A DNA stretch of 13,802 bases from Bacteroidia bacterium (GCA_016788065.1 JAEUTI010000041.1:1-13802); one strand, 5' to 3'. Shown: positions 146-13,802, counted from the first letter of the stretch. Notes: generated by a model from the letters alone, not told the origin. Program-made: numbers and translations.

Positions 146-396
146 GGCCCATTCGACAAGCTCAAGAGCCTATTGAGACTCACTATTCATTGATAATCTT
201 ATTTGGCCCTTGAGCCTGTCGAAAGGGCCGAATTTCTGCTATTCATTGTGCTCTTGATGGGCCCCTGAGCCTGCCGTAGGGGCCATATTTCTGCTATTCA
301 TCGATACTCTTGACAGGCCCCTGAGCCTGCCGCAGGGACCATACTTCTGCTATTCATCTAAACTCTCATCTGGCCCCTGAGCCTGTCGCAGGAGCC
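146..396. repeat. Cluster 1 of the hairpin-repeat family. It has five 25-nt hairpins (146-170 with inverted loop; 205-229, 260-284, 316-340 and 372-396 direct) at 55-59 bp spacing, separated by a conserved linker containing TTCTGCTATTCAT.
   Basis: Units read directly: GGCCCTT-GAGCCTGTCGA-AAGGGCC, GGCCCCT-GAGCCTGCCGT-AGGGGCC, GGCCCCT-GAGCCTGCCGC-AGGGACC and GGCCCCT-GAGCCTGTCGC-AGGAGCC. The linker motif TTCTGCTATTCAT is at 234-246, 289-301 and 345-357. The T/A to C/G change in the stem is compensatory. Confidence 0.9.
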
Positions 397-468
397 ATTT
401 CATGTCTCTGAGAATCGCTTAAACGACTCCTCGAAACTATCTATCCCCGTATACGTTCTAAAAACACT

Positions 469-792
469 ATGAAAACGATCAATTCTGAAGGTGAATTTAG
501 GGCAATTACAGGGGCGTCAGGCATTGTTTTAGTCGACTTTTATGCGTCCTGGTGTGAACCCTGTAAATGGCTCGATTCTATCCTGGAATCGATCAATTCA
601 TCGATACCTGAAGGATCCTCTATCTTAAAAATCGACACTGAACTGTTTTCCGATCTGGCGACTGAGTTTGAGATCAGGAGCGTTCCGGTGCTTCTTTTAT
701 TTGTAGATGGTGAAGTCGTTTGGCGGATGAATGGATTCAAAACGGGACCAGAATTATTGGAGGTGATGCAGACGTTTTCACGTGGAACATGA
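469..792 (+). CDS. Thioredoxin-family protein (107 aa) with an atypical WCEPC active site
   Basis: The DFYASWCEPCKW motif matches the Trx WCGPCK context except for Gly->Glu. The cis-Pro region SVPVLLLF and the GxxxG-like C-terminus are present, and the length is typical. Stop codon is TGA. Confidence 0.85.
   Translation: MKTINSEGEFRAITGASGIVLVDFYASWCEPCKWLDSILESINSSIPEGSSILKIDTELFSDLATEFEIRSVPVLLLFVDGEVVWRMNGFKTGPELLEVMQTFSRGT
775..788. promoter_or_regulatory. Palindromic motif copy b (TTTTCACGTGGAAC), overlapping the last codons of the thioredoxin gene
   Basis: Matches GTTyCACGTGrAAC. The 13-mer TTTCACGTGGAAC is identical to the reverse complement of the copy at 2280-2293. Confidence 0.25.
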
Positions 793-976
793 TTTTCATT
801 TTTCATGTCCTTTCCAACTTTATGTTAAATTGACATTCCAACTTTTCAAACGGAGTATTCAAGATTGGTTTTATTGATTTTTATACCCGTTTTCTCTGAT
901 TTTCCCCTTTTCATTTATTTCCGAGTTTATTAAATTTATTTAATAATTGATTTTATTTTCTTTTTTGAAAATTTGA

Positions 977-990
977 GTTTCACGTGAAAT
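977..990. promoter_or_regulatory. Palindromic motif copy c (GTTTCACGTGAAAT); the core TTTCACGTGAAA is a perfect 12-bp palindrome
   Basis: Read directly. It lies in the AT-rich spacer between convergent genes. Confidence 0.3.
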
Positions 991-1148
991 AATAATTTTT
1001 ATAAAAAACTCTCACTTTTGTTCCATGTGTTTTCTTTTAAATAATATTTTCTCAAATTTAATTCAAGATAGATCTGAAATGTAAAAGAAAAACGATTTTG
1101 ATCTGTTTTTAGCCACTTTTTATGTGGCGACTATACAGAATCTTAATT

Positions 1149-1287
1149 GGCCCTTGAACTTGACGTATGAGCTGTAGGTTTTCTGGAATTGAAAGATAAT
1201 TCTGGCCCCTGAGCCTGTCGCAGAGGCCGAATAATTTCTGCTATTCATCGATAAACTAAGTTGGCCCTTGAGCCCGTCGAAAGGGCC
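1149..1287 (+). repeat. Cluster 2 of the hairpin-repeat family: three copies at 1149-1173 (degenerate), 1204-1228 and 1263-1287, with the same linker (TTCTGCTATTCAT at 1236-1248)
   Basis: GGCCCCT-GAGCCTGTCGC-AGAGGCC followed by GAATAATTTCTGCTATTCATCGATAAACT, then GGCCCTT-GAGCCCGTCGA-AAGGGCC. Same orientation as the direct copies in cluster 1. Confidence 0.85.
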
Positions 1288-1296
1288 GTTAGATTT

Positions 1297-1316
1297 GTTT
1301 CACATGAAACATGTGA
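1297..1316. promoter_or_regulatory. Palindromic motif copy d (GTTTCACATGAAAC), overlapping a second inverted repeat TCACATG-AAA-CATGTGA
   Basis: Read directly. It matches 11 of 12 positions of the 978-989 palindrome core and lies about 75 nt beyond the 3' end of the methyltransferase gene. A TAGATTTG (TAnnTTTG-like) box sits at 1290-1297. Confidence 0.25.
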
Positions 1317-1383
1317 TAAAGTCTGATGAAAAAATGGAGTCCGAAAAGCTCCGATAGGTTCCTGGTCGAACAGGAAGAAAAGT

Positions 1384-2286
1384 CTACATCTTTTCTACGA
1401 TGTAGATTAGCGAGGTGTAATTGTTCACTTTTTGAACGCCTGCAATGTTCGTTCGTAAGCCGTTCCAAAAAGCTTTCACGGGATTCATGCTTCCGGTCTT
1501 GTATTTTTCGCTCAAAAGCGACACGTAGAACGAATCGAATACCATCGGCTTAACATCAACGACCTTTAGCTGATGTTTTTCGAGCAACTTTTCGACTGTT
1601 TTTTGAGTGAAATGGTAAAGATGTCGTGGCACATCCCAACCTCCCCAGTACTTGCCATAGATTTGAGCATCTTTTGATTCAGCATTTGGTACTGCGATAA
1701 CCATTTTTCCCTTTTCTGAGAGCAGACTTCTCAGTTGGGCCATCGTTTCATTCAACTGATGGATGTGTTCCATCACATGCCACATGGTAATAATGGAAAA
1801 TTGGCCTTTTTCGAGGTTATAAATGGTCTCTGGTGAGGTAATTTCAAGCTTATAGTTGTCGATTGCCTGCTTTCTGGCCTGTTCACTGGGCTCAATTCCC
1901 CTGGCTTGCCACTTATTTAGCTGCATTACGTTCAAAAACTCGCCTGTTCCGCATCCATAATCGAGTATAGTGCGTTTTCCGTCGACTAAACGCATCATTA
2001 AGGCGACTTTTTTAGCTATTGTATAGTGCCGAACCTGCTTATAGATGTTATTTATGAGTCCTTTTGAGCTGTTACTATGGGAAATATAGACCTCTGACTC
2101 ATAATATGGGCCTATATACTCGCTTTTTGGCCTCGGATTGGTGAAAAGGAATGTACAGTTGTCACATTGTACAATTTTAAAGGGTTCCTGACTAATGCTG
2201 TAGTCGTTCAAATCCATGAAATTGGTGAGGTTTTGAAGGCCACAAACGGGACAAGCAACAAGGGTTTCGGTTTTGGTAGGTTCCAC
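1384..2286 (-). CDS. Class I SAM-dependent methyltransferase with an N-terminal 4-Cys zinc-ribbon (300 aa)
   Basis: Motif I is ILDYGCGTGEF. The downstream acidic and hydrophobic motifs (ARGIEPS, IITMWHVMEH, GKMVIAVPN) fit the Rossmann methyltransferase fold. The N-terminal CPVCG...CDNC forms the zinc-ribbon. GTG start, TAG stop. Confidence 0.85.
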   Translation of the reverse strand: MEPTKTETLVACPVCGLQNLTNFMDLNDYSISQEPFKIVQCDNCTFLFTNPRPKSEYIGPYYESEVYISHSNSSKGLINNIYKQVRHYTIAKKVALMMRLVDGKRTILDYGCGTGEFLNVMQLNKWQARGIEPSEQARKQAIDNYKLEITSPETIYNLEKGQFSIITMWHVMEHIHQLNETMAQLRSLLSEKGKMVIAVPNAESKDAQIYGKYWGGWDVPRHLYHFTQKTVEKLLEKHQLKVVDVKPMVFDSFYVSLLSEKYKTGSMNPVKAFWNGLRTNIAGVQKVNNYTSLIYIVEKM

Positions 2287-2293
2287 GTGAAAC
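2280..2293. promoter_or_regulatory. Palindromic motif copy e (GTTCCACGTGAAAC, reverse complement GTTTCACGTGGAAC), overlapping the GTG start codon of the methyltransferase
   Basis: Read directly. The central CACGTG contains the start codon (2286..2284). Confidence 0.3.
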
Positions 2294-2548
2294 TAGGTTT
2301 AAGTTTAATGAAGTAAAGGTCAGTAAAAGGACCAAAAGTGTGTAAGTCCCTTCAATTATTTTATTAATAGTGAATGGTTTATAACTTTTTTCGTAGATTT
2401 TGGATGGGCAGGAGGTATGTGTGGAGTTCCGGAAGAAATGGGGTAGACCAAGGGACCTGTTTTATTAAAAGACCCCCTGATTGGTGAGGTGTTTTGCCTA
2501 AAATATTGGTTCCGAAAGGATGTTAATTCAGGAAAAAGCTAAACGGAA

Positions 2549-4420
2549 TTACCGTCCCATGTGGACCATTAAAATGGAAATATCTGAAGGCGAAACACCG
2601 GAAATACGGGAGGCCTGACCAAGCGTAATTGGCTTGATTTTGGTGAGTTTTTGGCGGGCTTCTGAAGATAAAGATTGAATTTTGCTGTAGTCATAATCGG
2701 CATCCAGAGCGATATGTTCGAGCTTATTCATCTTGTCAACCATGTCTTGTTCCTTGTTAATATAGCCTTGATATTTCATTAAAATTTCGGCTTGCTCTAC
2801 AACTTCTTCAGCATAGTTTTTCAGTTTTTCCTCTAAAAAAGGAACGCCAGCACGGAGCTCAGGTATGCCTAATTGTGGTCTGCTAACAACGTTTACCAGC
2901 TTAATTTTTTGACGGATTGGCTCCGTTTCATACTGCTCTAAAACAGGGTTAACCTCATCCGGAGAAATACTGGTTTCTTTGAAAAATTCAATGATTTCAT
3001 TGGTTCCGGAAACTTTTGATTCAACTTCCCTAAACCGGCTTTCTGATGCCAGTCCGAGGTGATAACCTAAAGGAGTTAACCTTATATCGGCATTATCCTG
3101 CCTTAGAATGGTGCGGAATTCAGCGCGCGAAGTGAACATTCTATACGGCTCATCGGTACCCTTTGTAACCAGGTCATCGATTAATACACCTATGTAAGCA
3201 TCCGAACGCTTTAATACGAAAGGATCTTTTTCGTTTAATTTCAAATGGGCATTAATACCGGCCATAAGTCCTTGACAAGCAGCTTCTTCGTAACCGGTGG
3301 TGCCGTTAATCTGACCAGCAAAATAGAGGTTTTCTACATTTTTGGTTTCTAAAGTAAGCTTCAATTGATCCGGTGGGAAATAATCGTATTCAATGGCATA
3401 TCCCGGACGGAACATCTTCACATTTTCGAAACCGGGAATTAGCTTGAGAGCCTTTAACTGTACATCTTCCGGAAGGGAAGAAGAAAAGCCATTCACATAA
3501 ATTTCAACGGTATTCCAACCTTCAGGTTCAACGAAAAGCTGATGACGATCGCGTTCCGCAAAGCGACTAATTTTATCTTCAATAGACGGACAATATCTCG
3601 GACCTAATCCCTGGATTCGGCCGGTGAACATCGGTGATTTTTCGAAACCCGTTCTTAAAATTTCATGAACCGCCTCGTTGGTATAAGTAACATGGCAACT
3701 TCTTTGAATTGCCGGAGGTGCTGTATTTGTAAATGAAAACTTCCCGGGGATTTCGTCTCCCGGTTGTTCTTCCATAAGATCATAATTCAACGAGCGACCA
3801 TCGAGGCGGGGAGGTGTTCCCGTTTTCATCCGGCCACTGGTAAATCCTAAAGTCAGAAGTTGCTCGGTAATTCCTATCGATGCTTTTTCTCCGGTGCGGC
3901 CACCGCCAAAGCGTTTTTCTCCTATATGAATGAGTCCGTTTAAAAAAGTTCCGTTGGTTAAAACCACCGCCCGCGAGCGGAATTCTATGCCCATGCCGGT
4001 GACAACACCGCAAACTTTACCTTTTTCAACAAGCAATCCACTGACCATATCCTGCCAAAAATCGACATTCGGTGTTTGCTCGAGCATCAGTCGCCATTGT
4101 TCTGCAAAAAGCATCCGGTCGTTTTGTGTCCGTGGACTCCACATTGCCGGACCCTTCGAACGATTTAACATCCGAAACTGAATCATGGACCGATCGCTCA
4201 CAATTCCCGAATAACCTCCGAGTGCATCAATCTCCCGAACAATCTGTCCCTTCGCAATACCGCCCATGGCGGGGTTGCACGACATCTGAGCGATGGTTTG
4301 CATGTTCATGGTCACCAAAAGTACTTTGGAACCCATGTTGGCCGCCGCCGCTGCAGCTTCGCAACCGGCATGTCCGGCACCGACTACAATTACATCGTAA
4401 GAAGGGAATAAGGTTGACAT
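2549..4420 (-). CDS. mnmG: tRNA uridine 5-carboxymethylaminomethyl modification enzyme MnmG (GidA), 623 aa
   Basis: Canonical FAD-binding N-terminus [16 protein letters not shown], plus conserved blocks [32 protein letters not shown] and a C-terminal helical domain. I place the start at the ATG at 4420 ([14 protein letters not shown]) rather than the ORF-track start at 4522. The 34 extra codons are translated hairpin repeats. Confidence 0.96.
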
Positions 4421-4424
4421 GGTG

Positions 4425-4432
4425 CAAAGGTA
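4425..4432 (-). promoter_or_regulatory. Possible Bacteroidota -7 promoter box (TACCTTTG, matching TAnnTTTG), 4 nt upstream of the mnmG ATG
   Basis: The reverse complement of CAAAGGTA matches the published Bacteroidetes sigma-A -7 consensus TAnnTTTG. Its position would give a leaderless or near-leaderless mRNA. A single match in AT-rich DNA is weak evidence. Confidence 0.25.
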
Positions 4433-4437
4433 GTAAT

Positions 4438-4508
4438 CTGGTTCGACAGGCTCACCAGGCCCTTTCGACAGGCTCATGGTCCTGAGTCCTTTTGACAAGC
4501 TCAATGGA
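4438..4508 (-). repeat. Cluster 3 of the hairpin-repeat family: three back-to-back copies (4438-4458, 4458-4482, about 4486-4508) in opposite orientation and without the linker
   Basis: CTGGT-TCGACAGGCTC-ACCAG has a different 5-bp stem but the identical 11-nt loop. The others are GGCCCTT-TCGACAGGCTC-ATGGTCC and a degenerate TCCTT-TTGACAAGCTC-AATGGA. Confidence 0.85.
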
Positions 4509-4566
4509 ATACACCAGGGCAATAAAAAAAGCTACCATTAAATTTATTTATCACTTTAAATTCCAC

Positions 4567-4595
4567 AAAAAAAGCCTCATTTAATGAGGCTTTTT
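4567..4595 (-). terminator. Rho-independent, structurally bidirectional terminator downstream of the 509-aa gene
   Basis: Stem GCCTCAT/ATGAGGC (4574-4580 and 4584-4590) with a 3-nt loop, flanked by A7 and T5. On the minus strand the hairpin is followed by TTTTTTT, 38 nt after the stop. A 9-bp inverted repeat TTCCACAAA/TTTGTGGAA (4561-4569 and 4611-4619) brackets it. Confidence 0.8.
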
Positions 4596-4632
4596 CATGG
4601 AATGTCTGTCTTTGTGGAACGGACACAGATTA

Positions 4633-6162
4633 TCAAAGATAATTTACCTTTTCTATTCTGCTTGTTAATGTTTTTTTCTTTTTGTAATACTCCACGATGT
4701 TAACATAACCGGGTTTTGCAGGATGAATCCATATATTGGTAGCCGTTGAGTTTATGGCAAATTTGTTGGTGGAAATTTTCAAATCTTCATACATAATTAC
4801 ACCTAACATTAAGTCAGCCTTTTCTCCATCCGATTGTTTTCTATCGCTATCCTGGAAAATTGCGAAATAGCGGTTTCTGTTGTCGGTAGATGCAAATTTG
4901 AAATCAAACCCTCCCAAAGATTTAATATACATGGCAAGAGCTGCAGAGGAAAGGTAACCAGCTCCTGCTGGTAGCGGACACCTTGTCTTTTTCTTTTCAA
5001 TCACCGGGTAATTTTTAATCTTAAAGTCTTTGTCAAATTCCATTACAACCATATTTTTAATAGTCATCTGAGAAGCACCTGATTGACCTTTCGACAAAAC
5101 AGCTCCGGCAACACCAAGTCCGCTGACAGTTTTTTTATACTGTTCGCCAATAGCTACAATGCCTCCGTCTGGAGACTGGTAAACGGAATGAACAAAAACT
5201 CTTGGGAGTTCATCTTTATCATCTTCATCCATCTGTCCTTTAATAACTTTTTTTACATCACCGTCCCACGATATATTGCTTAGAATTTGTTTCTGGCCGG
5301 AAGCATTGAGTACAAGTACGTACATTCCTTTGCTTTTGCTTTTTAGCATGTCTTCACCAGGTGCATAATATTCACCTACCACCTGAAATTTCCCTTCAGC
5401 TTCATTAACAAGTACATTTATAGCTGACATTTCACTGCTTTTTTCCTTTAATGGATATTCAAAGATTTTTTTCCCGTTTGTTGCATCAACAGCTATCAGA
5501 AAACCATCTCCGTTACCAGACATGAGGTTTTTCTTTTTTACAACATTGGCTACAACATATTTTGATGATGAGTAAACGATATCAGCCATTTCAATCATTT
5601 CAGAATTAGGGTCGGAACCAAATTTCCAAATTTGTTTAAAAGTATTATCATAACCGTTTAGAATATAACCGTACTTATCGTTTTTCAACATACTCATCTG
5701 CACGAATCCATTTTCAGACAACGGAAAGATGGTCACATTGCCCGTCTCTTCATCACTCTTTAATTGTTGATCGATACGCATCAGTTCCATTCGTGATAAA
5801 TCATCGAACACTTTTGAACCTAATTTTTTTCCTGACTTGTCGTAAGTTAAAAACTGCATTTCTCTTTTATTCGGGTGATAAAAAGTAAGCACAAACGCCT
5901 TTCCATTGAAAACCATTTCCAATAAACGACTGTTTCTTTGTTCTATAATATCGACCGTTTTAACAGAGTTGCAATTGTCGTCCATCAACTCGAGTTTGTA
6001 CATGTCGTTGGTCTTGTCGGCTTTATCAAATCGGTAGAGCGCATAATATCCGGCGACATTGTCCATTTCTTTAATGTACCCGGTACTGTTCAGTGTGATT
6101 TTTGTTGCCGATTCAAATTGTTTAGTGATTTGTGCATTGGCCGTCATGGTTAGTGTCATCAA
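4633..6162 (-). CDS. Hypothetical protein (509 aa as tracked), probably secreted, family not recognised. The 5' end is anomalous (see findings).
   Basis: Long uninterrupted ORF with beta-rich, Lys/Asn-rich composition and a TGA-TAA tandem stop. The ORF-track start is TTG at 6162 and the first ATG is at 6159. An upstream in-frame ATG at 6195 would complete a signal peptide but is cut off by a TGA. Confidence 0.7.
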   Translation of the reverse strand: MMTLTMTANAQITKQFESATKITLNSTGYIKEMDNVAGYYALYRFDKADKTNDMYKLELMDDNCNSVKTVDIIEQRNSRLLEMVFNGKAFVLTFYHPNKREMQFLTYDKSGKKLGSKVFDDLSRMELMRIDQQLKSDEETGNVTIFPLSENGFVQMSMLKNDKYGYILNGYDNTFKQIWKFGSDPNSEMIEMADIVYSSSKYVVANVVKKKNLMSGNGDGFLIAVDATNGKKIFEYPLKEKSSEMSAINVLVNEAEGKFQVVGEYYAPGEDMLKSKSKGMYVLVLNASGQKQILSNISWDGDVKKVIKGQMDEDDKDELPRVFVHSVYQSPDGGIVAIGEQYKKTVSGLGVAGAVLSKGQSGASQMTIKNMVVMEFDKDFKIKNYPVIEKKKTRCPLPAGAGYLSSAALAMYIKSLGGFDFKFASTDNRNRYFAIFQDSDRKQSDGEKADLMLGVIMYEDLKISTNKFAINSTATNIWIHPAKPGYVNIVEYYKKKKTLTSRIEKVNYL

Positions 6163-6207
6163 TCATGCTAAAACGTGTGTCAATTTTGTTTTCATTTGTG
6201 TATTTGG

Positions 6208-7683
6208 TTAGTTTAAGTTTAAATTCCGGATCTGCCAATTATATTTTCCTTTTGAAAAATTTTTCAGAAATTCTGTCTGGTATTTAATAAATGATTCTTT
6301 TTGTTTACTTATATACGCCTGGTAAACAAATGCCGAAAGCACATGCTCATGCTCTGTCATAGAGGAAGGAACTCTGTTTAGGAAAACTTCTGCAATTCCG
6401 GCGGTCTCACTCTTTTTCAACTCCCAAAGGAAGCTTATGATACGATTATAATTTTCATCATAAAAATGGCTGGGTAAAGGCATCACTTTATTTGCAGAAG
6501 TTTTTTCCTGATAATTGGATAGCATAGCGAACGCATGTGCCATCGTTACATTAGAATAAATGGTGTCGTGCGGCCAGTGTTTCTGCATTTGAGTTGCCAG
6601 GAAAATGGCTCGGCCCACATTTCCTGTTGCCAGATAAAGTTCAACTATCTCGCCTTCAGAAGCCATCTTCATGTGAGCAAATTGGGTCTCCGGTTGTCGA
6701 AAAAATTGGCCTCCCGACTTCGCGTTTGGTGGAATTACTAATTGGATTTTTTCAGCCCGGATTTTTGTGTCAGGGTGCGTCTTCAGCGAATCCTCATCTG
6801 CTGTCCGCTCTTCTTCTTCAAAAACGCCCAATGAAGATCCGGGTTCATAATAGGTCCATCCGTTTCTAAATGGCACACTTGGAGAACTGAATACCTCTTT
6901 AATATCTATTGGCGACAAATCCGACTCTTTGTCCGCATTATCGAGAATCTCCATTATTTCAAGTGCAGCTGCCGGGGCGTAATCGGTATTCAGAAAAAAA
7001 CGCATTCCTATTGTGTCTGCTTCAATTTCATAATCCCTGCTATATCGCATATCTTCTAATACACCTGGCTTTACAAGATCTGTAAGTTTTTGCTTCACCA
7101 TATACTGCTCCTGCAGCACCTCTTTCAATTTCTTTTGAAATTCCGGATCCAAATACTTTTTGGCATTTCCAATAGCTTTGGCGGAATTATGGTTTTTATG
7201 ATCGTGTGCAAGTTCATGACAAAGGATAAATGCCAGCTGTGCTTCATTATCGAGCCGTTCTAACAATCCCGAATAAATTATTATAATGCCATCCCCTAAA
7301 GAATAAGCATTTACCATCGGATTTCTGGACACTAAAAGAAGCATGTCTTTTCGCAAAACCGGGTTTTTGCTTAAAATATGATCTAAAACATTTTGTGCAT
7401 ACGTCTGCAGAAATGAATCAAATAAAAACTCTCCACCACTGATCGCCGATTTAAGATATTCTTTTCGCTCCGTATAAATATCTTTAAGATAGTCTTTAAT
7501 ATATTTTTCCTCGTTTTGAATTAATGCAATCGACTGGTTATATGTTTTATCAATTCTTACCTGAGCAACAGAGTCTTTTACTACCAGTTTCGATGGAATA
7601 AATGTTGTAGGAACCTGTGATAATGCGCATTGATAAAATAAAAAAAATGCAATCAAAAGCAAACAAAGATTAGTTGGTCGCAT
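6208..7683 (-). CDS. M48-family zinc metallopeptidase (BepA/Ste24-like) with a helical, TPR-like C-terminal half. 491 aa from the preferred start.
   Basis: HExxH motif in LCHELAHDHKNH, plus the family-typical downstream SRDYEIEADTIG (ExEAD) motif. The start at 7683 gives a clean signal peptide MRPTNLCLLLIAFFLFYQCALSQ. The ORF-track start at 7758 adds 25 residues that would bury the signal peptide. Confidence 0.85.
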   Translation of the reverse strand: MRPTNLCLLLIAFFLFYQCALSQVPTTFIPSKLVVKDSVAQVRIDKTYNQSIALIQNEEKYIKDYLKDIYTERKEYLKSAISGGEFLFDSFLQTYAQNVLDHILSKNPVLRKDMLLLVSRNPMVNAYSLGDGIIIIYSGLLERLDNEAQLAFILCHELAHDHKNHNSAKAIGNAKKYLDPEFQKKLKEVLQEQYMVKQKLTDLVKPGVLEDMRYSRDYEIEADTIGMRFFLNTDYAPAAALEIMEILDNADKESDLSPIDIKEVFSSPSVPFRNGWTYYEPGSSLGVFEEEERTADEDSLKTHPDTKIRAEKIQLVIPPNAKSGGQFFRQPETQFAHMKMASEGEIVELYLATGNVGRAIFLATQMQKHWPHDTIYSNVTMAHAFAMLSNYQEKTSANKVMPLPSHFYDENYNRIISFLWELKKSETAGIAEVFLNRVPSSMTEHEHVLSAFVYQAYISKQKESFIKYQTEFLKNFSKGKYNWQIRNLNLN

Positions 7684-8198
7684 TGAATTTTGAATAACCG
7701 GACATCTGTTTTTTTTAAAAGATAAACCTGAAACAGACTTGCTAAAATATGGCTTCATTTAAAAATTTGATCAAAAATCTATTTGAGGCTAAATTAAGTG
7801 CTAGTACCCACCTTTCCAAATTTTTCAAACATTTATTAAGATCAGTATAATCAACAACTTGCGAACACTTTTGTGTACGCTCCACACTGTAATTGATAAC
7901 CTGTTATCAGAAAAACTTCAACTTTGAAAGCAGATTTATTTTATCCGTCTATTCAGATACATATATGGGAACTACGATATTCAAAGCACCGATTTTTCAA
8001 TTTCTGCCTTTATGTACCTCCTCCTCCTATGACCCAATCACTGGTAAGGAGCCCCACGGTAATTTTTTCATAGTGAATTGACAATCTTATTGGAATAGAG
8101 TCCCAACTTTAATGATCGAGGGTTGATAAAACCTCCCATCACAAACACTCAATCACAGGCAAAATAATGCCCATTTAGTGTTTAATTGGAGCAGGACC

Positions 8199-8957
8199 TT
8201 AATTTCTTTGGTAATACCAATGCATCATTTGATTTCTGACCAACTGCTCGCTGGTGGTATCATCGAGAATTTGCAGATAAGACATCTTTTTAATGTCCAT
8301 GCAATATTGAACTAACGTCCAGTAGTTATAATATTCCCGTGGTGATATTGTTCCATCTTCAAATTTAACTTCCCACAAAGTTTCATCTGTTGCAATTAAC
8401 CGATCAATATTTTTGGAAAGGTTTTTTTGATTGGGGTTCTGACGGGAAATATATTCCGCATAACCTTCCCATTTCCAATCAGGAATAGCAGCAATTGGAT
8501 TTGATTTCCTAAGACCCAGATAATCGAACTGCAAACAATGCGTCATCTCATGAGTTAATAGCTGAGTTAAATTCCACCTGTAACCATGTAATTCGACAAT
8601 ATTTTCCGGAACATTGGTGGTTCCCTGCAGGATAACTTTATTGTAGAAGCCCCATGCAAATGCAGGACCCCGCAATGTTTTCATCAGATCCGGATAACTG
8701 GAACCATCATTCAAACAAATGTCAAGGTGCAGATTGGGGTTGTAAAATTCACTCGTTTTTAAATGTTCAGTTGCGTTATCAAGATGACTCAAAAGAGTTG
8801 GATCAAGGGGTTGATGATGAAATACGGAATAATTAGAATGAGTAGTTTTTCCGGCATAAGTCAATACCGGCTTTAAAATAATCAGCAGCAACAGAATGGT
8901 GATCAATAATCCTGATACGGTTAATCGAAGGGTCCATTTTTTAATTTGCTTTTTCAT
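8199..8957 (-). CDS. Membrane-anchored putative zinc metalloprotease-like protein (252 aa), family not recognised
   Basis: N-terminal MKKQIKKW followed by a TM helix LTVSGLLITILLLLIIL. HExxH is in LLTHEMTHCLQ, with a candidate third ligand Glu about 28 residues later (WEGYAEY), which fits a gluzincin-like arrangement. Confidence 0.6.
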   Translation of the reverse strand: MKKQIKKWTLRLTVSGLLITILLLLIILKPVLTYAGKTTHSNYSVFHHQPLDPTLLSHLDNATEHLKTSEFYNPNLHLDICLNDGSSYPDLMKTLRGPAFAWGFYNKVILQGTTNVPENIVELHGYRWNLTQLLTHEMTHCLQFDYLGLRKSNPIAAIPDWKWEGYAEYISRQNPNQKNLSKNIDRLIATDETLWEVKFEDGTISPREYYNYWTLVQYCMDIKKMSYLQILDDTTSEQLVRNQMMHWYYQRN

Positions 8958-9072
8958 GAGAATGCTTATTAGAGGTTATTAATGAAATTGTGCTTTCGTT
9001 TATGGTATGGTGATTGGCAAAACCTTACTTCGATTCATGTTCTAAAATATACTGGTCATGTGCTATTTAGAA

Positions 9073-9219
9073 TTACAGAATAGTCTTATGGCTGTTAGAA
9101 ATGGTTATTGCTTTATAATTTTCCGGGTGATCTCGCCTTTCTTTGAAACCATACGCACCAAGTGCAATTATCATGATCCAACCTTCCAGGAAAGGAATAA
9201 TAAAAATTGGATTTCCCAT
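9073..9219 (-). CDS. Possible small membrane protein (48 aa), below the ORF-track cutoff
   Basis: Hand translation gives MGNPIFIIPFLEGWIMIIALGAYGFKERRDHPENYKAITISNSHKTIL, with ATG at 9219 and TAA at 9075..9073. It has one clear hydrophobic helix followed by a positive cluster. There is no further support. Confidence 0.3.
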   Translation of the reverse strand: MGNPIFIIPFLEGWIMIIALGAYGFKERRDHPENYKAITISNSHKTIL

Positions 9220-9373
9220 AACTTGAATTATTTTTTAAACTTGCCGCTACCCACACCATCTAAAAATCTCAGGCTTCTCAAAAATAATAAATATTTTCAA
9301 TGCCGCGAGGAAAACTTCTACCTGGTGTTGCAAATTGGAATAGCACTTACTCAGATTCTGATATTAATTTTGT

Positions 9374-9898
9374 TCACTTCGTATTTAAATACAAGTCAAA
9401 TTCATCTGCTTTGATTTCTTCCGGCATTAATCTTAAATGTCCATTAGCAACTACTGCCTTAAATGTTTCATTTCCTAAATTATTGCCTCCCACAAAATTT
9501 GAGTTGCAGGTAACAACCAAATTACCCAAATAAAAATAGAATTGAAATGTTTTCATAGCGAGGCCATTGAATTGAGAAAACGGCATACTTTTATACACGG
9601 TACTATCCAGTTTATAACAAACAACCATACCATTATCAAGTATAGCTTGAGTAATTTCAGGGATTGATAACACTGCAGAATCATTACTATTTGCTGAAGT
9701 ATTATAAGTATACCAATCATTCGGAGCAACGGTAACTATTTTTGAATATATCTCTATTGCTCCATTCTCTCCACTCGGTCCTTGCGGACCCTGAGGACCA
9801 ATTTCACAATCATCTTCCTTATTGCAACTGGTATATACCATTGAAAATGATAATATGAAAAAGAGTACTACTTTTGAAGGTTGGAATCGAGCCATCAT
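9374..9898 (-). CDS. Lipoprotein (174 aa) with a short collagen-like Gly-X-Y segment, probably surface-exposed
   Basis: Signal peptide with lipobox-like YTSC, then CNKEDD (acidic stretch after the +1 Cys), then GPQGPQGPSGENG. TGA stop. Confidence 0.7.
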   Translation of the reverse strand: MMARFQPSKVVLFFILSFSMVYTSCNKEDDCEIGPQGPQGPSGENGAIEIYSKIVTVAPNDWYTYNTSANSNDSAVLSIPEITQAILDNGMVVCYKLDSTVYKSMPFSQFNGLAMKTFQFYFYLGNLVVTCNSNFVGGNNLGNETFKAVVANGHLRLMPEEIKADEFDLYLNTK

Positions 9899-10205
9899 AA
9901 TAAAATATTTTAGTTTGTTGTAGATTGATAAGGATTATTGATGTTTTTAAGCTATCTGCAGTTGGTGATTTAGGAGCGCTGTACTGTTTGCCTAAACCGA
10001 ACTTGATATGCAGTATCAGGGATAATTGTTTAAATAATAATCTTCCATTTAATTAAATTCAATAAGATTCGCATCCTCAATTTCTGGTGCTCTATTTAAT
10101 AATTCCATCTGAAGTTTTAAGGTTTGCTTAAAGTGGTGGTTAAGAATTGTTGCAGAGCAAGTTGTTTATACCTGTTCATTCCATCTTACTTTAATCATTC
10201 AATTC

Positions 10206-12317
10206 TCAAAATCCCGCTACAATTAATTTCCTATAATATGATTTCTTAGCTGTTAGGATAGAAACCAAATACATCCCGGGTGAAAGATTGGAGATATTCA
10301 GACGCAAAGAAGTTGTGTTGTGAATAGATCTCTTCAGATGCAATTTCCCCGATAAATCCAGAATTTCCAGTTGACCCGATTTAATACGTTCGTGCATGCG
10401 GATAGTAACTTGCGTGTTTGCAGGGTTAGGATAAAGTTGCATTTCGTTAGGTTCAGAAATTTGTTCCCCAAGTCCGGTAAAATCACTTAAGGGTCTACGA
10501 TAAATTGAAAATCGGGTACGCCAACTGCCTGTGCTGACAAACAAATAGTCATTATTTACATAAAAGGAACGGATATCTACAATATCGAGCTCAGGATATA
10601 AACCATAGCTTAAATCGCTCCAGGAATCGCCGGCATCGGCAGAATATACAATACCACTATGGAAAACAGTTCCTGCAAACACATGGTTGTTGACTGATAT
10701 CAATGCACTTATCCATGGCTCCGGTGTTCCAAAATTATATGGAATCCATGTTAAACCGTAATCAATAGATTTATGAATTCCCCCCGGTTGAGTTCCTACA
10801 AATAGAATGGTATCAAGAACTGTCATCGACCAAATATTGGCGGAATTCAAACCATTGTTAATAGCTGTCCAGGAAACACCGTTATCATTAGAAACAAACA
10901 TACCATCATTGCCTGAGGTTGCAACATATAATGAAGTATCAAGAAACGCTATGTCCACCAAGTTGCTGTTTGTAAGAGTAATGCTGGAAAATAAATTCCA
11001 TGTTTGAGCAGAGTCCACCGAGGTGTGAATAAGTCCTGTATTTCCAATTGCATAAAGAATTCCATCATGCATCCTAAGTGCAACAATTTGTGAATCCGCA
11101 ATTCCGTTGCTGGCAGTTACCCACGTTGAACCTGTATCTGCAGTCATAAATAATCCATGATTATACAACGACATAAGCATGCTGTTGTCTACAGCTAAAA
11201 AGCATGCTGGAAATTCATTATATAAATTCTGAAAGGGTAATCCTGCATTGACCGGCTTCCAGGAGGTTCCATTATTTTTAGAAACAGTAACACCTGCAGA
11301 TTCGCCATTTTCATTAATGGCCCCCGCAAACAACACATCACCAAATCCACCCATCGCAATTACATCTAATGCCGGCAACCCTTTCAGTGACCAATTGGAT
11401 GGTACCTGATAAGATTTGTACAATCCACCCATAGTGCCGGCCAGGATGGTGGAATCATCAACTGCTAATTTTGTTATTTCACGAAAACCCATTCCAGTAT
11501 TGGAAGGGGCCCATGTTTGTCCATGATCTGGTGAATAGAAAACACCATTATTTTTGCCGACCACTAATGTATCTCCATAAAAGCTCACATCTTTGATAGC
11601 TGAAATTGAAAAGCCTATATTCGACCAGGTATTTCCAAGGTCTGCTGAAAAAAACACACCGTCTCCTTGTGAGCCAGCGATAACATTTGAGTCACGGGCA
11701 GCAATAGATCTAATATCGTATCCCGTAAGGCCATTATTGGATGCCTGCCAGGACTGACCCCAATCATCGGTTCGATACATTCCAACAGGTGTAGCTGCAA
11801 ACAATTGCAGTCCGTTGGTAGCCAGATCGTGGACAAAATATTGAGCTGGAAGACCTGAACTAACATTTGTCCAATTTATTCCACCGTCAGTGGTTACATA
11901 AACTCCCGCTGCAATAGCTACAAATACTTGATTTCCTACTACAGCAAGCGAGGTGCATTCATTGGATGCCAACCCGTTCAAAGATGGTAACCAGGTGATT
12001 CCATGATCAACAGACCGGTAAACACCACTGTCGGATGTACTCATAAATATTAGTGAGTCTTGAAAGGCTATATCTCTTATAACATAGCCATTAGTACATA
12101 AAACAGGACTCCATGTTTCTCCTAAATCAACAGAGCGGAACAACTGACTCCAATGATTACTGTTGCCAAAGCTGCATACTGCCATCACCTCATTTCCTTT
12201 CACTCCCATGCAAAGAATCTCCGCACCATTTGGCCCATTGCAATTCACCCATTGTGCACTTACATTGAAATAACAATTGATGAGCATAAAAAGAAGTATT
12301 GTAAGTTTGAATTTCAC
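10206..12317 (-). CDS. Secreted BNR/Asp-box repeat protein (703 aa; tandem beta-propeller likely) with a T9SS C-terminal sorting domain
   Basis: Twelve S/T-x-D-x-G-x-(T/S)-W boxes, for example SVDLGETW, SVDHGITW, SADLGNTW, SPDHGQTW, TADTGSTW, SNDNGVSW, SIDYGLTW and SADAGDSW. The C-terminus LYPNPANTQVTI...LSPGMYLVSILTAKKSYYRKLIV is a typical Por_Secre_tail. GTG start gives the signal peptide MKFKLTILLFMLINCYFNVSAQ. Confidence 0.88.
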   Translation of the reverse strand: MKFKLTILLFMLINCYFNVSAQWVNCNGPNGAEILCMGVKGNEVMAVCSFGNSNHWSQLFRSVDLGETWSPVLCTNGYVIRDIAFQDSLIFMSTSDSGVYRSVDHGITWLPSLNGLASNECTSLAVVGNQVFVAIAAGVYVTTDGGINWTNVSSGLPAQYFVHDLATNGLQLFAATPVGMYRTDDWGQSWQASNNGLTGYDIRSIAARDSNVIAGSQGDGVFFSADLGNTWSNIGFSISAIKDVSFYGDTLVVGKNNGVFYSPDHGQTWAPSNTGMGFREITKLAVDDSTILAGTMGGLYKSYQVPSNWSLKGLPALDVIAMGGFGDVLFAGAINENGESAGVTVSKNNGTSWKPVNAGLPFQNLYNEFPACFLAVDNSMLMSLYNHGLFMTADTGSTWVTASNGIADSQIVALRMHDGILYAIGNTGLIHTSVDSAQTWNLFSSITLTNSNLVDIAFLDTSLYVATSGNDGMFVSNDNGVSWTAINNGLNSANIWSMTVLDTILFVGTQPGGIHKSIDYGLTWIPYNFGTPEPWISALISVNNHVFAGTVFHSGIVYSADAGDSWSDLSYGLYPELDIVDIRSFYVNNDYLFVSTGSWRTRFSIYRRPLSDFTGLGEQISEPNEMQLYPNPANTQVTIRMHERIKSGQLEILDLSGKLHLKRSIHNTTSLRLNISNLSPGMYLVSILTAKKSYYRKLIVAGF

Positions 12318-12688
12318 TGGGTATTGATTTAAAGATTAAGCATTAAAAGTACAAATGTTTCTTCATCTTAGCAACTTTTTAAAAAGAGGGGTATTTGGCA
12401 GATTAACTTTGATTTGTGCAAGGCAACAAGAACAATTCCCCAAAATTGATAAAATCGTTTCAGCTATCTGAAAGGGTGCCATGAGGATAACTTCTACCGG
12501 GTTTTGAATAAGGAACTCGATCTACGATTCATTTTAAAAGACAAAGCCCAATTAACTTGCAATTTAACAAAATGAATGTTGTTTTTTACATTTTGATACA
12601 GAAACCGGCTGTTTCGACTGGTACTCTATAAAAATCTGATAGCGATATCAGGCAGCTAATTGCACTAACAAAAGTTATATTTTTTTTT

Positions 12689-12725
12689 AAAAAGTTGTGC
12701 CTCTCCGACTGAATTGGCAGGCAAC
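12689..12725 (-). terminator. Probable intrinsic terminator downstream of the 2-TM protein gene
   Basis: On the minus strand the hairpin is GTTG(CC)TGCC-14 nt loop-GGCACAAC, followed by TTTTT, 37 nt after the TAA stop. The stem has a 2-nt bulge, so it is of moderate quality. Confidence 0.4.
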
Positions 12726-12761
12726 GGTCACCGATGTTGTACGCTGGCCTATAAATGCCAG

Positions 12762-13199
12762 TTAAACCCGTTCGTTGTCAGCCTGCCATTCCTGAATTGA
12801 TTTTTTTATTTGGTCACCTTTTAAACCATCGTGTAATGCTCTTTGAAGGAGTGTAATAAACTCTTCATCATTTGCAAATCGTAGAGCGGAGATTTGATCA
12901 AAGGTCAACTGTTTTTCGATCGGATCCGTTCTTTTACCGAATAATTCGAAATATCTTAATTTAAATTCCAAACGAACTATTCTATTTTGATTACCCAAAG
13001 CATAATGTTGTCTTACCATTAAAGTAAGATAAAGTATACAAGATATCGCAACAGTAAATAGTAACCATGACAAATTGTTTTCCTCACTTAAGTAAATGTT
13101 TCTAATACCGATAAAAATTAATATCAGTAAAATGGGTAAAAAAACAAAATGGTGTGGAATATAATACCTTTTGTGATTCGAATAGTTTTGCTTTTTCAT
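12762..13199 (-). CDS. Small membrane protein with two TM helices and a soluble helical C-terminal domain (145 aa from the preferred start)
   Basis: From the ATG at 13199 it reads MKKQNYSNHKRYYIPHHFVFLPILLILIFIGI...WLLFTVAISCILYLTLMV, then a charged C-terminal domain. The ORF-track start at 13277 adds 26 non-hydrophobic residues that overlap remnant sequence. No family is assigned with confidence. Confidence 0.65.
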   Translation of the reverse strand: MKKQNYSNHKRYYIPHHFVFLPILLILIFIGIRNIYLSEENNLSWLLFTVAISCILYLTLMVRQHYALGNQNRIVRLEFKLRYFELFGKRTDPIEKQLTFDQISALRFANDEEFITLLQRALHDGLKGDQIKKSIQEWQADNERV

Positions 13200-13357
13200 A
13201 TTTTGTACAGTTACAAAAATCAAACCACTATTGCCATCTCTATAAAAGTTTAGCAATGTCCTTCGTAAATTTGCCATTTGGTTGAAAGCTGTCTAAAGCT
13301 TGTGCAACACCGGCTGTTAAAAGCAGGCGTAGCAAATCTATCAACGGAATACCAAGC

Positions 13358-13683
13358 TTATTGTCGAATAAATAATATTGGTAGTTTGTTATCATAAACT
13401 TCCGGAACTACTTTGAGTCCAAAATTATTAATATACGCATTCAAAATCTTATCCTTAACTATAAAAATGTCAATCTTGGAAATTTCACTGGAAAATTATT
13501 AGTGTAGAGGTTTTCTGAATTAATGTAAACTGCATCTATGAAGAGTTGATAAAAGTCCACCACCTCATCAATAAATTGTTTCTTATTTGCCAGTCAATCG
13601 ATCAACTTTCTTTCACACCACTCTGTTCAAATAGCATTTCCTTGACCATATTCGCTTGGTGATAACGTCAGACTGTGAAAATA
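13358..13683 (-). pseudogene. Probable decayed gene remnant: protein-like reading frames broken by two TGA codons and one frameshift, with no start codon
   Basis: Hand translation of the minus strand gives YFHSLTLSPSEYGQGNAI*TEWCERKLID*LANKKQFIDEVVDFYQLFIDAVYINSENLYTNNF, then a 1-nt shift in a T-run, then SSEISKIDIFIVKDKILNAYINNFGLKVVPEVYDNKLPILFIRQ*. The ORF track has no ORF of 60 aa or more anywhere in 13278-13802. Confidence 0.3.
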
Positions 13684-13802
13684 CTAATTTTCCTCATCCC
13701 TTTGTTAATTTCTATTGAAAAATTGTTCCTAACTCGAGCATTTTGATTGCTATTTTTAGGGAAAATCAAACTCATGCAACACATAGTACCCATGGACAGA
13801 TA

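Follow-up and report, generated by a model that had tools for sequence, protein, structure and literature searches.

We analysed a 13,802-nucleotide stretch of DNA from a Bacteroidia bacterium (GCA_016788065.1 JAEUTI010000041.1:1-13802; hereafter the window), which comes from a genome of about 39% GC and encodes a type IX secretion system (T9SS) sorting domain and a DUF6770 gene. Short hairpin repeats, in which complementary arms of varying sequence enclose a conserved 11-nucleotide loop (GAGCCTGYCGA), form three clusters there: at 146-396, between a divergent kinase-like gene and trx; at 1148-1287, between the convergent trx and methyltransferase genes; and at 4438-4509, between the ATG of mnmG (position 4420) and the DUF6770 gene. 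From the combined analyses below we consider it likely that these hairpins are the cognate single-stranded DNA (ssDNA) repeats of a single-domain GIY-YIG nuclease of about 95 residues, related to the Ssn enzymes, and that they were orphaned here by loss of the nuclease gene.

A sequence-only reading of the window had reported about 11 hairpin copies within 146-4508, all of them intergenic. Eleven copies, nine clear and two decayed, were found by a combination of direct sequence reading, relaxed loop matches and a repeat finder, and all lie in the three intergenic gaps named above. GAGCCTGYCGA with at most one mismatch occurs nine times, compared with 0.11 expected, a count that none of 200 shuffled sequences reached; all nine matches fall within 146-4509 and none within 4510-13802. 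The loop had been described as invariant, which overstated its conservation: it is exact in only three copies (at 212, 4443 and 4465), carries a single-base change in six (the last base is T or C at 267, 323, 379 and 1211; the others are at 1270 and 153), and is decayed in two (at 1148, and at 4492, where it reads GAGCTTGTCAA). The stems reported for the copies at 205 and 1263 (GGCCCTT/AAGGGCC), 260 (GGCCCCT/AGGGGCC) and 4438 (CTGGT/ACCAG) were found as claimed. Seven of the eleven copies still form the expected DNA hairpin, with folding energies of -2.8 to -7.6 kcal/mol, while those at 146, 1148, 4459 and 4485 do not. Ten of the 11 copies were recovered by a covariance model (R1) derived solely from unrelated genomes, nine of them with E-values of 0.0004-0.34 and the tenth with E = 4.2. 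One further locus (L001) is identical to the window and is uninformative on polymorphism. The individual features are as follows.

146-171, minus strand: hairpin copy 1, with an imperfect stem (minus strand GGCTCTT-GAGCTTGTCGA-ATGGGCC) and one loop mismatch; R1 matches the core only (E = 0.01); no stable fold.
183-398, plus strand: tandem array of 3.9 units with a 56-nucleotide period (Tandem Repeats Finder, 81% matches, score 241), upstream of trx in the divergent intergenic region.
205-229, plus strand: hairpin copy 2, GGCCCTT-GAGCCTGTCGA-AAGGGCC, loop exact; R1 21.2 bits, E = 0.0004; -7.1 kcal/mol, z = -2.85.
260-284, plus strand: hairpin copy 3, GGCCCCT-GAGCCTGCCGT-AGGGGCC; R1 15.3 bits; -7.6 kcal/mol.
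316-340, plus strand: hairpin copy 4, GGCCCCT-GAGCCTGCCGC-AGGGACC, one stem mismatch; R1 10.6 bits; -5.1 kcal/mol.
372-396, plus strand: hairpin copy 5, GGCCCCT-GAGCCTGTCGC-AGGAGCC, one stem mismatch; R1 19.5 bits; -6.1 kcal/mol.
1148-1172, plus strand: decayed copy 6, GGCCCTT-GAACTTGACGT-ATGAGCT, loop and stem broken; member of a repeat-finder family with 62% identity; no R1 match; unfolded.
1204-1228, plus strand: hairpin copy 7, GGCCCCT-GAGCCTGTCGC-AGAGGCC; R1 17.3 bits; -5.3 kcal/mol.
1263-1287, plus strand: hairpin copy 8, GGCCCTT-GAGCCCGTCGA-AAGGGCC; R1 12.9 bits; -7.0 kcal/mol, z = -2.48.
4438-4458, minus strand: hairpin copy 9, CTGGT-GAGCCTGTCGA-ACCAG, loop exact; R1 18.0 bits; 18 nucleotides upstream of the mnmG ATG.
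4459-4483, minus strand: hairpin copy 10, GGACCAT-GAGCCTGTCGA-AAGGGCC, loop exact, stem degenerate; R1 matches the core only (16 bits); expected fold absent.
4485-4509, minus strand: degenerate hairpin copy 11, TCCATT-GAGCTTGTCAA-AAGGA, two loop mismatches; R1 6.5 bits; common to the left edge of the cassette in sister strain L212 (see below).

Each unit of the 56-nucleotide array (183-398) comprises one hairpin and a spacer of about 31 nucleotides (ATTTCTGCTATTCATYGATAMTCTTGA), and the spacer is repeated along with the hairpin. The number of units is not the same in the sister strain.

To characterize the family outside the window, we scanned one genome per GTDB species for the 15-nucleotide core CTGAGCYTGTCGAAG and collected at least 120 loci. 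Some 2,000 chance matches to the core are expected in the GTDB collection, and raw counts therefore prove little; it is the flanks that carry the evidence. The same hairpin occurs in genomes from most bacterial phyla, which answers the concern that it might be restricted to this locus and bears out the suggestion of a broader, multi-phylum family. The matches listed include Bacteroidota, Chloroflexota, Cyanobacteria, Actinomycetota, Planctomycetota, Nitrospirota, Acidobacteriota, Armatimonadota, candidate phyla radiation (CPR) bacteria and others, as well as Alpha-, Beta-, Gamma- and Deltaproteobacteria. The family pattern is [N3-5]CT-GAGCYTGYCGA-AG[N'3-5], that is, a stem of 5-7 bp that is free in sequence but complementary, around the conserved 11-nucleotide loop; the pan-phylum unit is [CCGYTCR] N S C T - GAGCYTGTCGA - A G S' N'. 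Pan-phylum copies share a conserved CCGYTCR on the 5' side, with nothing corresponding to it on the 3' side. The 5' flank of the Bacteroidota set (CGGTG...) does have a 3' match (CACC) and is thus merely a longer stem, the window's stem being GGCCC/GGGCC. A second common arm class, TGGT...ACCA, is found in many genomes, and the CTGGT/ACCAG stem at 4438 belongs to it. Among ~35 viral contigs recovered, besides coding microsatellites, in a scan for two tandem loops, the hairpin again has differing, complementary stems, at 35-70% GC. Annotated plasmids (Sphingobium, Moraxella osloensis, Comamonas, Microbacterium and others) hold up to nine hairpin places per record, and nearly all matches lie in unannotated intergenic DNA.

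Stem covariation across hundreds of unrelated copies is strong, which supports the proposal that the element is structure-specific. Beyond the fixed C-G and T-A pairs, the next two stem positions are Watson-Crick in 144/157 and 134/157 copies, against 75 and 51 expected; among 149 distinct copies, the two positions beside the fixed pairs are paired in 137/149 and 143/149, the common pairs being CG (91) and GC (39) at one and CG (53), UA (38) and GC (36) at the other. Overall, 90% of stem cells are paired, compared with 70% in shuffles, none of 500 of which was as high, and with 53-57% when the partner was slid by one column. At the two co-varying positions, G-T pairs outnumber A-C pairs by 17 to 5 on the GAGC strand, an excess that, on alignment counts, hints at strand-specific folding. 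It had been considered that the stem variants might be no more than decayed duplicates, and a related explanation is that the window copies are functionless relics, generated by local tandem duplication of a GC-rich palindrome and left to decay neutrally. Four of the eleven window copies are degenerate, and the 56-nucleotide array is a plain tandem duplication, spacer included. However, the stems show compensation instead of decay, contigs of 32%-75% GC from many phyla have this same loop, and a peak of hairpin density at a nuclease gene (below) also contradicts neutral decay; we find this explanation hardly credible.

Copies occur singly, as inverted doublets 30-70 nucleotides apart, or in tandem arrays with periods of 21-24 or 39-56 nucleotides, the inverted doublets being commonest. 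In a doublet, each arm has its own, different local stem that is complementary to itself (gcc/ggc on one and ggg/ccc on the other in L099, for instance), which argues that the small hairpins matter and not only pairing from arm to arm. A third loop variant, one base longer (CTGAGCGWAGYCGAAG, loop GAGCGWAGYCGA), occurs in the same stem context beside canonical copies and a GIY-YIG gene, at L212:9880-9905, about 60 nucleotides upstream of the GIY-YIG gene of Chitinophaga caeni (L437), and in L112 and L125. Resemblances of the core to a hammerhead-like motif (CUGA...GAA) and to a tRNA anticodon loop (CCUGUC) were dropped because the core positions do not fit.

A candidate partner gene emerged from comparison of the mnmG locus in relatives. 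The MnmG protein of sister strain L212 is 100% identical to that of the window, and the genes of the two strains are 93-98% identical as DNA. At the mnmG-upstream cluster, where the window has three hairpins, L212 has about 900 extra nucleotides comprising a PF01541 GIY-YIG gene and about nine further hairpins, placing the gene among about 12 hairpins between DUF6770 and mnmG. The two features that define this difference are the following.

L212:8938-9435, minus strand: GIY-YIG nuclease gene with PF01541 as sole domain and a conserved domain of about 95 residues; the protein starts MKGYTYILECCDGSFYTGST.
Window 4463-4504: insertion junction, aligning to both ends of the extra segment of L212; the blastn segments 1285-4504 and 4463-9064 overlap here.

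We take the double alignment of window 4463-4504 as the signature left when direct hairpin repeats recombine. Relatives with 87-88% MnmG identity also carry the GIY-YIG gene at the mnmG-upstream site, flanked by hairpins, which points to loss from the window strain; on this comparison, loss of the nuclease gene there is most likely. The nuclease gene is hairpin-flanked in L212, L213, L215 and L438. R1 matches L212 26 times, always within 5.5 kb of a 22-kb stretch, and divergence within the region shared by L212 and the window is greatest in the repeat arrays (85-88% identity), which differ by whole units. The hairpin forms written for the putative target of the L212-type nuclease are GGCCCTTGAGCCTGTCGAAAGGGCC and TTGGCCCTTGAGCCTGTCGAAAGGGCCGA. 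In L215, a gene encoding an SRA/HNH (ScoMcrA-like) protein of the methylation-dependent restriction type (L215:355-1227, minus strand) adjoins the hairpin-flanked GIY-YIG gene.

The arrangement of this cassette is also compatible with a selfish homing-type element, in which a GIY-YIG homing endonuclease, with the hairpins as its target or ends, spreads gene and repeats without a host function and the window copies are scars. With repeats on both sides of a gene, the cassette is laid out like an insertion sequence; strains with identical MnmG differ in whether they have it, its distribution over Bacteroidota and Gammaproteobacteria is patchy and at unrelated loci, and the repeat arrays have diverged more than any other part of the region. 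On the other hand, the gene is kept at the mnmG-upstream site down to 87% MnmG identity, which looks vertical rather than like a fresh invasion. The recognition mechanism would moreover be the same as for a nuclease with cognate repeats, the two accounts differing only in the beneficiary; we judge the homing explanation unlikely.

Association between the hairpins and this nuclease clade was then assessed from the gene side, in 80 metagenome loci encoding homologues of 55-64% identity, where a hairpin was counted if four or all of its five stem pairs were present and no more than one loop base differed. Hairpin densities by position relative to the gene in these loci were as follows.

-150 to 0: 2.05/kb.
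0 to +150: 3.12/kb.
+150 to +300: 1.6/kb.
Beyond 1 kb: at most 0.06/kb.

A copy lies within 300 nucleotides of the gene in 28 of the 80 loci and in none of the shuffled sequences. Distant DNA outside open reading frames (ORFs) in the same loci holds 0.15 hairpins per kb, compared with 1.88 near the gene, and the enrichment is therefore not simply one of intergenic over coding DNA. Orientations are balanced (32/30 downstream and 18/17 upstream). Two gammaproteobacterial metagenome-assembled genomes (MAGs) have inverted doublets beside the GIY-YIG gene, one of them on both sides. Homologues range from 88 to 160 residues. In L223, about five tandem 96-nucleotide units, each an inverted hairpin doublet, extend from +73 to +481 past the GIY-YIG gene, an amplification resembling bacterial interspersed mosaic elements. 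Viral contigs with this nuclease clade gave two loci only and were uninformative, and a tblastn search of the first hairpin loci with E. coli YhbQ gave no match. Nor did distant hairpin pairs (L104, L097, L195 and L108) share a partner: the genes that they enclose are housekeeping genes or a DUF222-HNH gene, with no transposase and none in common.

The layout of gene and repeats recalls a system described recently. Ssn proteins are single-domain GIY-YIG proteins of about 94 residues (cd10448) whose genes are flanked by hairpin repeats, termed SRM, or NTS in the case of Neisseria (Chenal et al., Nat Commun 2025, PMC11893778). Members of the cd10448 clade match N. meningitidis SsnA (CAX49033.1) at blastp E < 1e-10. 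SRM repeats take their orientation from a conserved 5' flank that is not palindromic, and a genome has tens to hundreds of them outside genes, grouped near particular genes (PMC11893778). Purified Ssn enzymes bind one strand of the repeat, provided that it is single-stranded, and cleave on its upstream side; they are inactive on double-stranded DNA and RNA, and were called by their describers the first site-specific nucleases acting solely on ssDNA (PMC11893778). Ssn modulates transformation in Neisseria, and its authors note the layout of repeat, gene and repeat, like that of an insertion sequence, and expect many nuclease/repeat pairs (PMC11893778). Compared with three Ssn-like proteins flanked by NTS (from viral contigs), the partner nuclease shows 37-42% identity (pairwise E = 4e-17 to 4e-11), and a profile comparison (hhalign) with NTS-flanked Ssn-like proteins gave a probability of 99.2% and E = 2e-19, at 41% identity over the whole domain. 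On these sequence comparisons, a tiny Ssn-related GIY-YIG nuclease is the probable partner of the hairpin.

The two systems share a single-domain GIY-YIG protein of about 94-95 residues, homologous across the full domain; a gene flanked on both sides by short hairpin repeats; in the loci collected, many clustered extragenic copies around other genes as well; and separate nuclease clades that go with separate repeats. They differ in the repeat itself. NTS/SRM has an 8-bp stem, a loop of 3-5 nucleotides and a CGTCAT head, whereas the window family has a variable stem of 5-7 bp and a conserved 11-nucleotide loop. The SRM consensus HGTCWYN(0-2)YYVSBRHN(0-5)WNVSBRGN(0-2)RNCYNB has no match in the window, in L212 or in the 80 loci of the nuclease clade; it picks out 11 of 12 canonical Ssn-like loci, and the GAGCYTGYCGA hairpin is absent from all 12; local co-occurrence of the two repeats was not seen. 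Activity on ssDNA has been demonstrated for Ssn, whereas for the hairpin-family nuclease it would follow from homology. The sequence-only reading had not recognised the hairpin as a named class. For the repeat family itself that held: an Rfam scan of the window and 15 family loci at relaxed E-values gave nothing at threshold and only sub-threshold matches to RF02901, and literature searches for the motif as DNA, RNA or peptide strings, or for UPF0213/YhbQ/COG2827, yielded nothing relevant. The kind of system, on the other hand, is already described as the Ssn type; what is new is this repeat family.

The same reading had also proposed recognition in folded form, either as ssDNA with a transposase of the type associated with repetitive extragenic palindromes (REPs), a RAYT, or another hairpin-binding recombinase as partner, or as RNA. 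Its ssDNA option is the one favoured here, and a likely partner is indeed encoded beside the repeats, but that partner is a small GIY-YIG nuclease, neither a RAYT or other IS200/IS605 tyrosine transposase nor a recombinase: the gene tables of L212-L215 contain no Y1 transposase, and it is the GIY-YIG gene that sits between the repeats. REP/REPIN-RAYT systems nonetheless resemble the present one in several respects. Both have short extragenic palindromes, often in inverted doublets (+/- pairs 30-70 nucleotides apart) or mosaic clusters, and a protein gene in single copy with its own repeats on either side, with co-evolution of protein and repeat; recognition as folded ssDNA would, by analogy with Ssn, be a further likeness. 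An explanation of this kind would make the hairpins REP/REPIN-like or IS200/IS605-derived elements moved by a Y1 (HUH) transposase, with the GIY-YIG gene a mere neighbour or insertion target. The strictly extragenic layout of short palindromes, inverted doublets and tandem clusters, without a visible target duplication, fits such elements, as does the distance of most copies from any GIY-YIG gene. However, the partner is a GIY-YIG nuclease rather than an HUH/Y1 transposase; flank counts show no 5' GTAG head (CCGYTCR is present instead); conservation lies in the loop, whereas in REPs it lies in the 5' head and stem; one 15-nucleotide core is common to many phyla, whereas REPs are lineage-specific and vary by species; and hairpin density peaks at the GIY-YIG gene, with a loop class that co-varies with the nuclease tail (below). 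A Y1-moved element found no support in the loci examined and is very unlikely.

The main rival explanation is an RNA element, in which hairpins in the 5' leaders or 3' untranslated regions of transcripts would bind a protein or serve in processing, stabilisation or termination. Each of the three window clusters has the sense orientation of an adjacent transcript (two lie on either side of trx, and the third precedes mnmG), and the excess of G-U over A-C on the GAGC strand fits RNA also. An RNA containing copies is catalogued in Aggregatibacter as sRNA 41 (AaHKsRNA41, RF02901); like the family it has an inverted pair of the 15-nucleotide core, CUGAGCUUGCCGAAG...CUUCGGCAAGCUCAG, and family members from other phyla match its model at E = 1e-6 to 1e-3. 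RF02901 is, however, a 187-nucleotide species-level small RNA model whose two arms pair with each other; its best score among the sequences scanned was 43.5 bits (L177) against a gathering threshold of 97, the window had no match at E <= 1, and no Rfam family reached threshold. Equal orientations around the nuclease gene, the prevalence of inverted doublets and the absence of a U-tract after the hairpins also argue against RNA, as does the fact that the repeats track the nuclease gene, whose homologous, characterised Ssn enzymes do not bind or cut RNA (PMC11893778). We accordingly regard the RNA explanation as improbable.

If the hairpins are cognate repeats of the Ssn-related nuclease, homology to Ssn (PMC11893778) suggests how they would work. 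The repeat would fold when DNA becomes single-stranded, during replication, transformation, conjugation or repair; the nuclease would bind the folded hairpin strand-specifically and cut the single strand nearby. Repeat-flanked DNA would then be a target of ssDNA cleavage, and recombination of incoming DNA might be restricted or modulated, while cleavage together with recombination between repeats would cause repeat units, and the nuclease cassette itself, to be gained and lost locally. Most genomic copies are orphans scattered away from the gene, like REP/REPIN elements.

Several observations weigh against this interpretation. There is no nuclease gene within the window itself, and profile hidden Markov models found no GIY-YIG ORF in 1.72 Mb of hairpin-selected loci; the link is therefore visible from the gene side only, most copies being orphans. 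Even from that side, a hairpin accompanies only 35-49% of homologue loci under the criteria used, eight distant plasmid homologues (35-47% identity) have neither the hairpin nor SRM, and no partner was identified for the high-GC 'CCGTTCG' copies of Alpha- and Betaproteobacteria, Chloroflexota and Actinomycetota. The nuclease is also as close to the UPF0213 protein BH0048 (1ZG2; 43% identity, E = 1e-18) as to Ssn-like proteins. This protein and EF2693 (1YWL) are the closest solved structures (E = 3.5e-13 and 2.9e-08, respectively), and UPF0213 proteins share the size and single GIY-YIG domain of the nuclease. Their function is unknown, and we know of no association with repeats. Finally, the C-terminal tail of the nuclease is encoded directly beside the downstream repeats, and the match between loop and tail described next could reflect physical linkage.

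Near nuclease genes, loop positions 4 and 7 swap jointly: GAGCYTGYCGA (C..G) occurs 63 times and GAGGYTCYCGA (G..C) 32 times, other combinations at most five times. Loops are exclusively C..G at the 15 loci where the tail reads ..L[SA][KR]N.. and exclusively G..C at the eight where it reads ..AYRD.., an association of loop class with C-terminal tail class without exception in 15 + 8 loci (Fisher p = 2e-6). In three further loci, where both loop types occur, the tail is of the AYRD class. The core domain, on the other hand, fails to separate the loop classes (identity 0.684 within and 0.683 between classes, p = 0.42). Either the tail reads the loop, or tail and downstream repeats are inherited as one block. 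More broadly, and only tentatively, we suggest that the GAGCYTGYCGA hairpin may be the recognition element of a separate, nearly pan-bacterial Ssn-like branch missed by the SRM definition, in which the loop swap (C4..G7 to G4..C7) is matched by a tail switch (..KN.. to ..AYRD..) and orphan copies record its spread. If true, the loop swap and tail switch would make the determinant of specificity readable in an enzyme of 95 residues, and orphan copies from Bacteroidota to Chloroflexota, Actinomycetota and CPR bacteria would trace the spread of one system.

Pairing the hairpins with this clade would provide the repeats with a likely partner and add a second motif, unrelated in sequence and matched by a nuclease clade of its own. 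The apparent loop/tail switch offers a testable handle on how folded DNA is read by a single-domain protein of 95 residues. Each such ssDNA nuclease/repeat pair is a potential tool. The repeats also mark sites of fast gain and loss, the nuclease cassette and the array units differing between strains with identical MnmG.

The hairpins affect annotation as well. Peptides of the LSLSKG, FDKL and PVEP type, which the sequence-only reading had linked to hypothetical-protein annotations, are explained by ORFs that run through the repeats: the remainder of the called L212 GIY-YIG ORF is a read-through of downstream hairpins, and several GIY-YIG ORFs do the same. Spurious 'hypothetical proteins' and false N- or C-terminal extensions (LSLSKG, FDKLR, LRQAQ, EPVE, STSSG) result. 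The longest mnmG ORF of the window (2549-4522, minus strand) starts at a TTG inside the hairpin cluster, and a database entry with 99% identical MnmG (P0002) was called at 662 rather than 623 residues, which implies a false N-terminal extension of 39 residues through the hairpins. In many nuclease homologues 'FDKL' also occurs in a conserved C-terminal helix (ALINGDFDKLS, residues ~80-85), and the hairpin encodes FDKL in one frame; this may be coincidence or old read-through.

Other features of the window and of the loci collected were noted in passing. A perfect hairpin, AAAAAAGCCTCATTTAATGAGGCTTTTT, at 4565-4600, between the DUF6770 gene and the third cluster, resembles a bidirectional intrinsic terminator and accounts for a weak Rfam match to 'Phe_leader'. 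A reading of the window as a replication origin was rejected, as DnaA boxes are not enriched and GC skew has no switch. Four parS-like sites (774-789, 976-991, 1296-1311 and 2279-2294) match TGTTTCACGTGAAACA with 1-3 mismatches, where 0.11 are expected, and their position near mnmG/gidA suggests an origin-proximal ParB loading region. On Planktothrix agardhii plasmid p1 (L300, 1489-1773), a distant GIY-YIG homologue without hairpins belongs to a defence island, where it is flanked by an MmeI-type restriction-modification gene and by drmA, the DISARM helicase gene. In an anammox MAG, a 1039-residue ORF contains a composite inverted hairpin pair (L108, 1400-1470) that may be an in-frame insertion of the element into coding sequence; a near-identical intergenic pair is found 3.7 kb away. 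DUF222-HNH genes are a known repeated element in actinobacteria; in Microbacterium mangrovi (L097), a gene for a DUF222 + HNH endonuclease (4794-6419) stands between two hairpin arrays (4449-4625 and 6452-6654), which are made up of inverted pairs and tandem units of 54 nucleotides.

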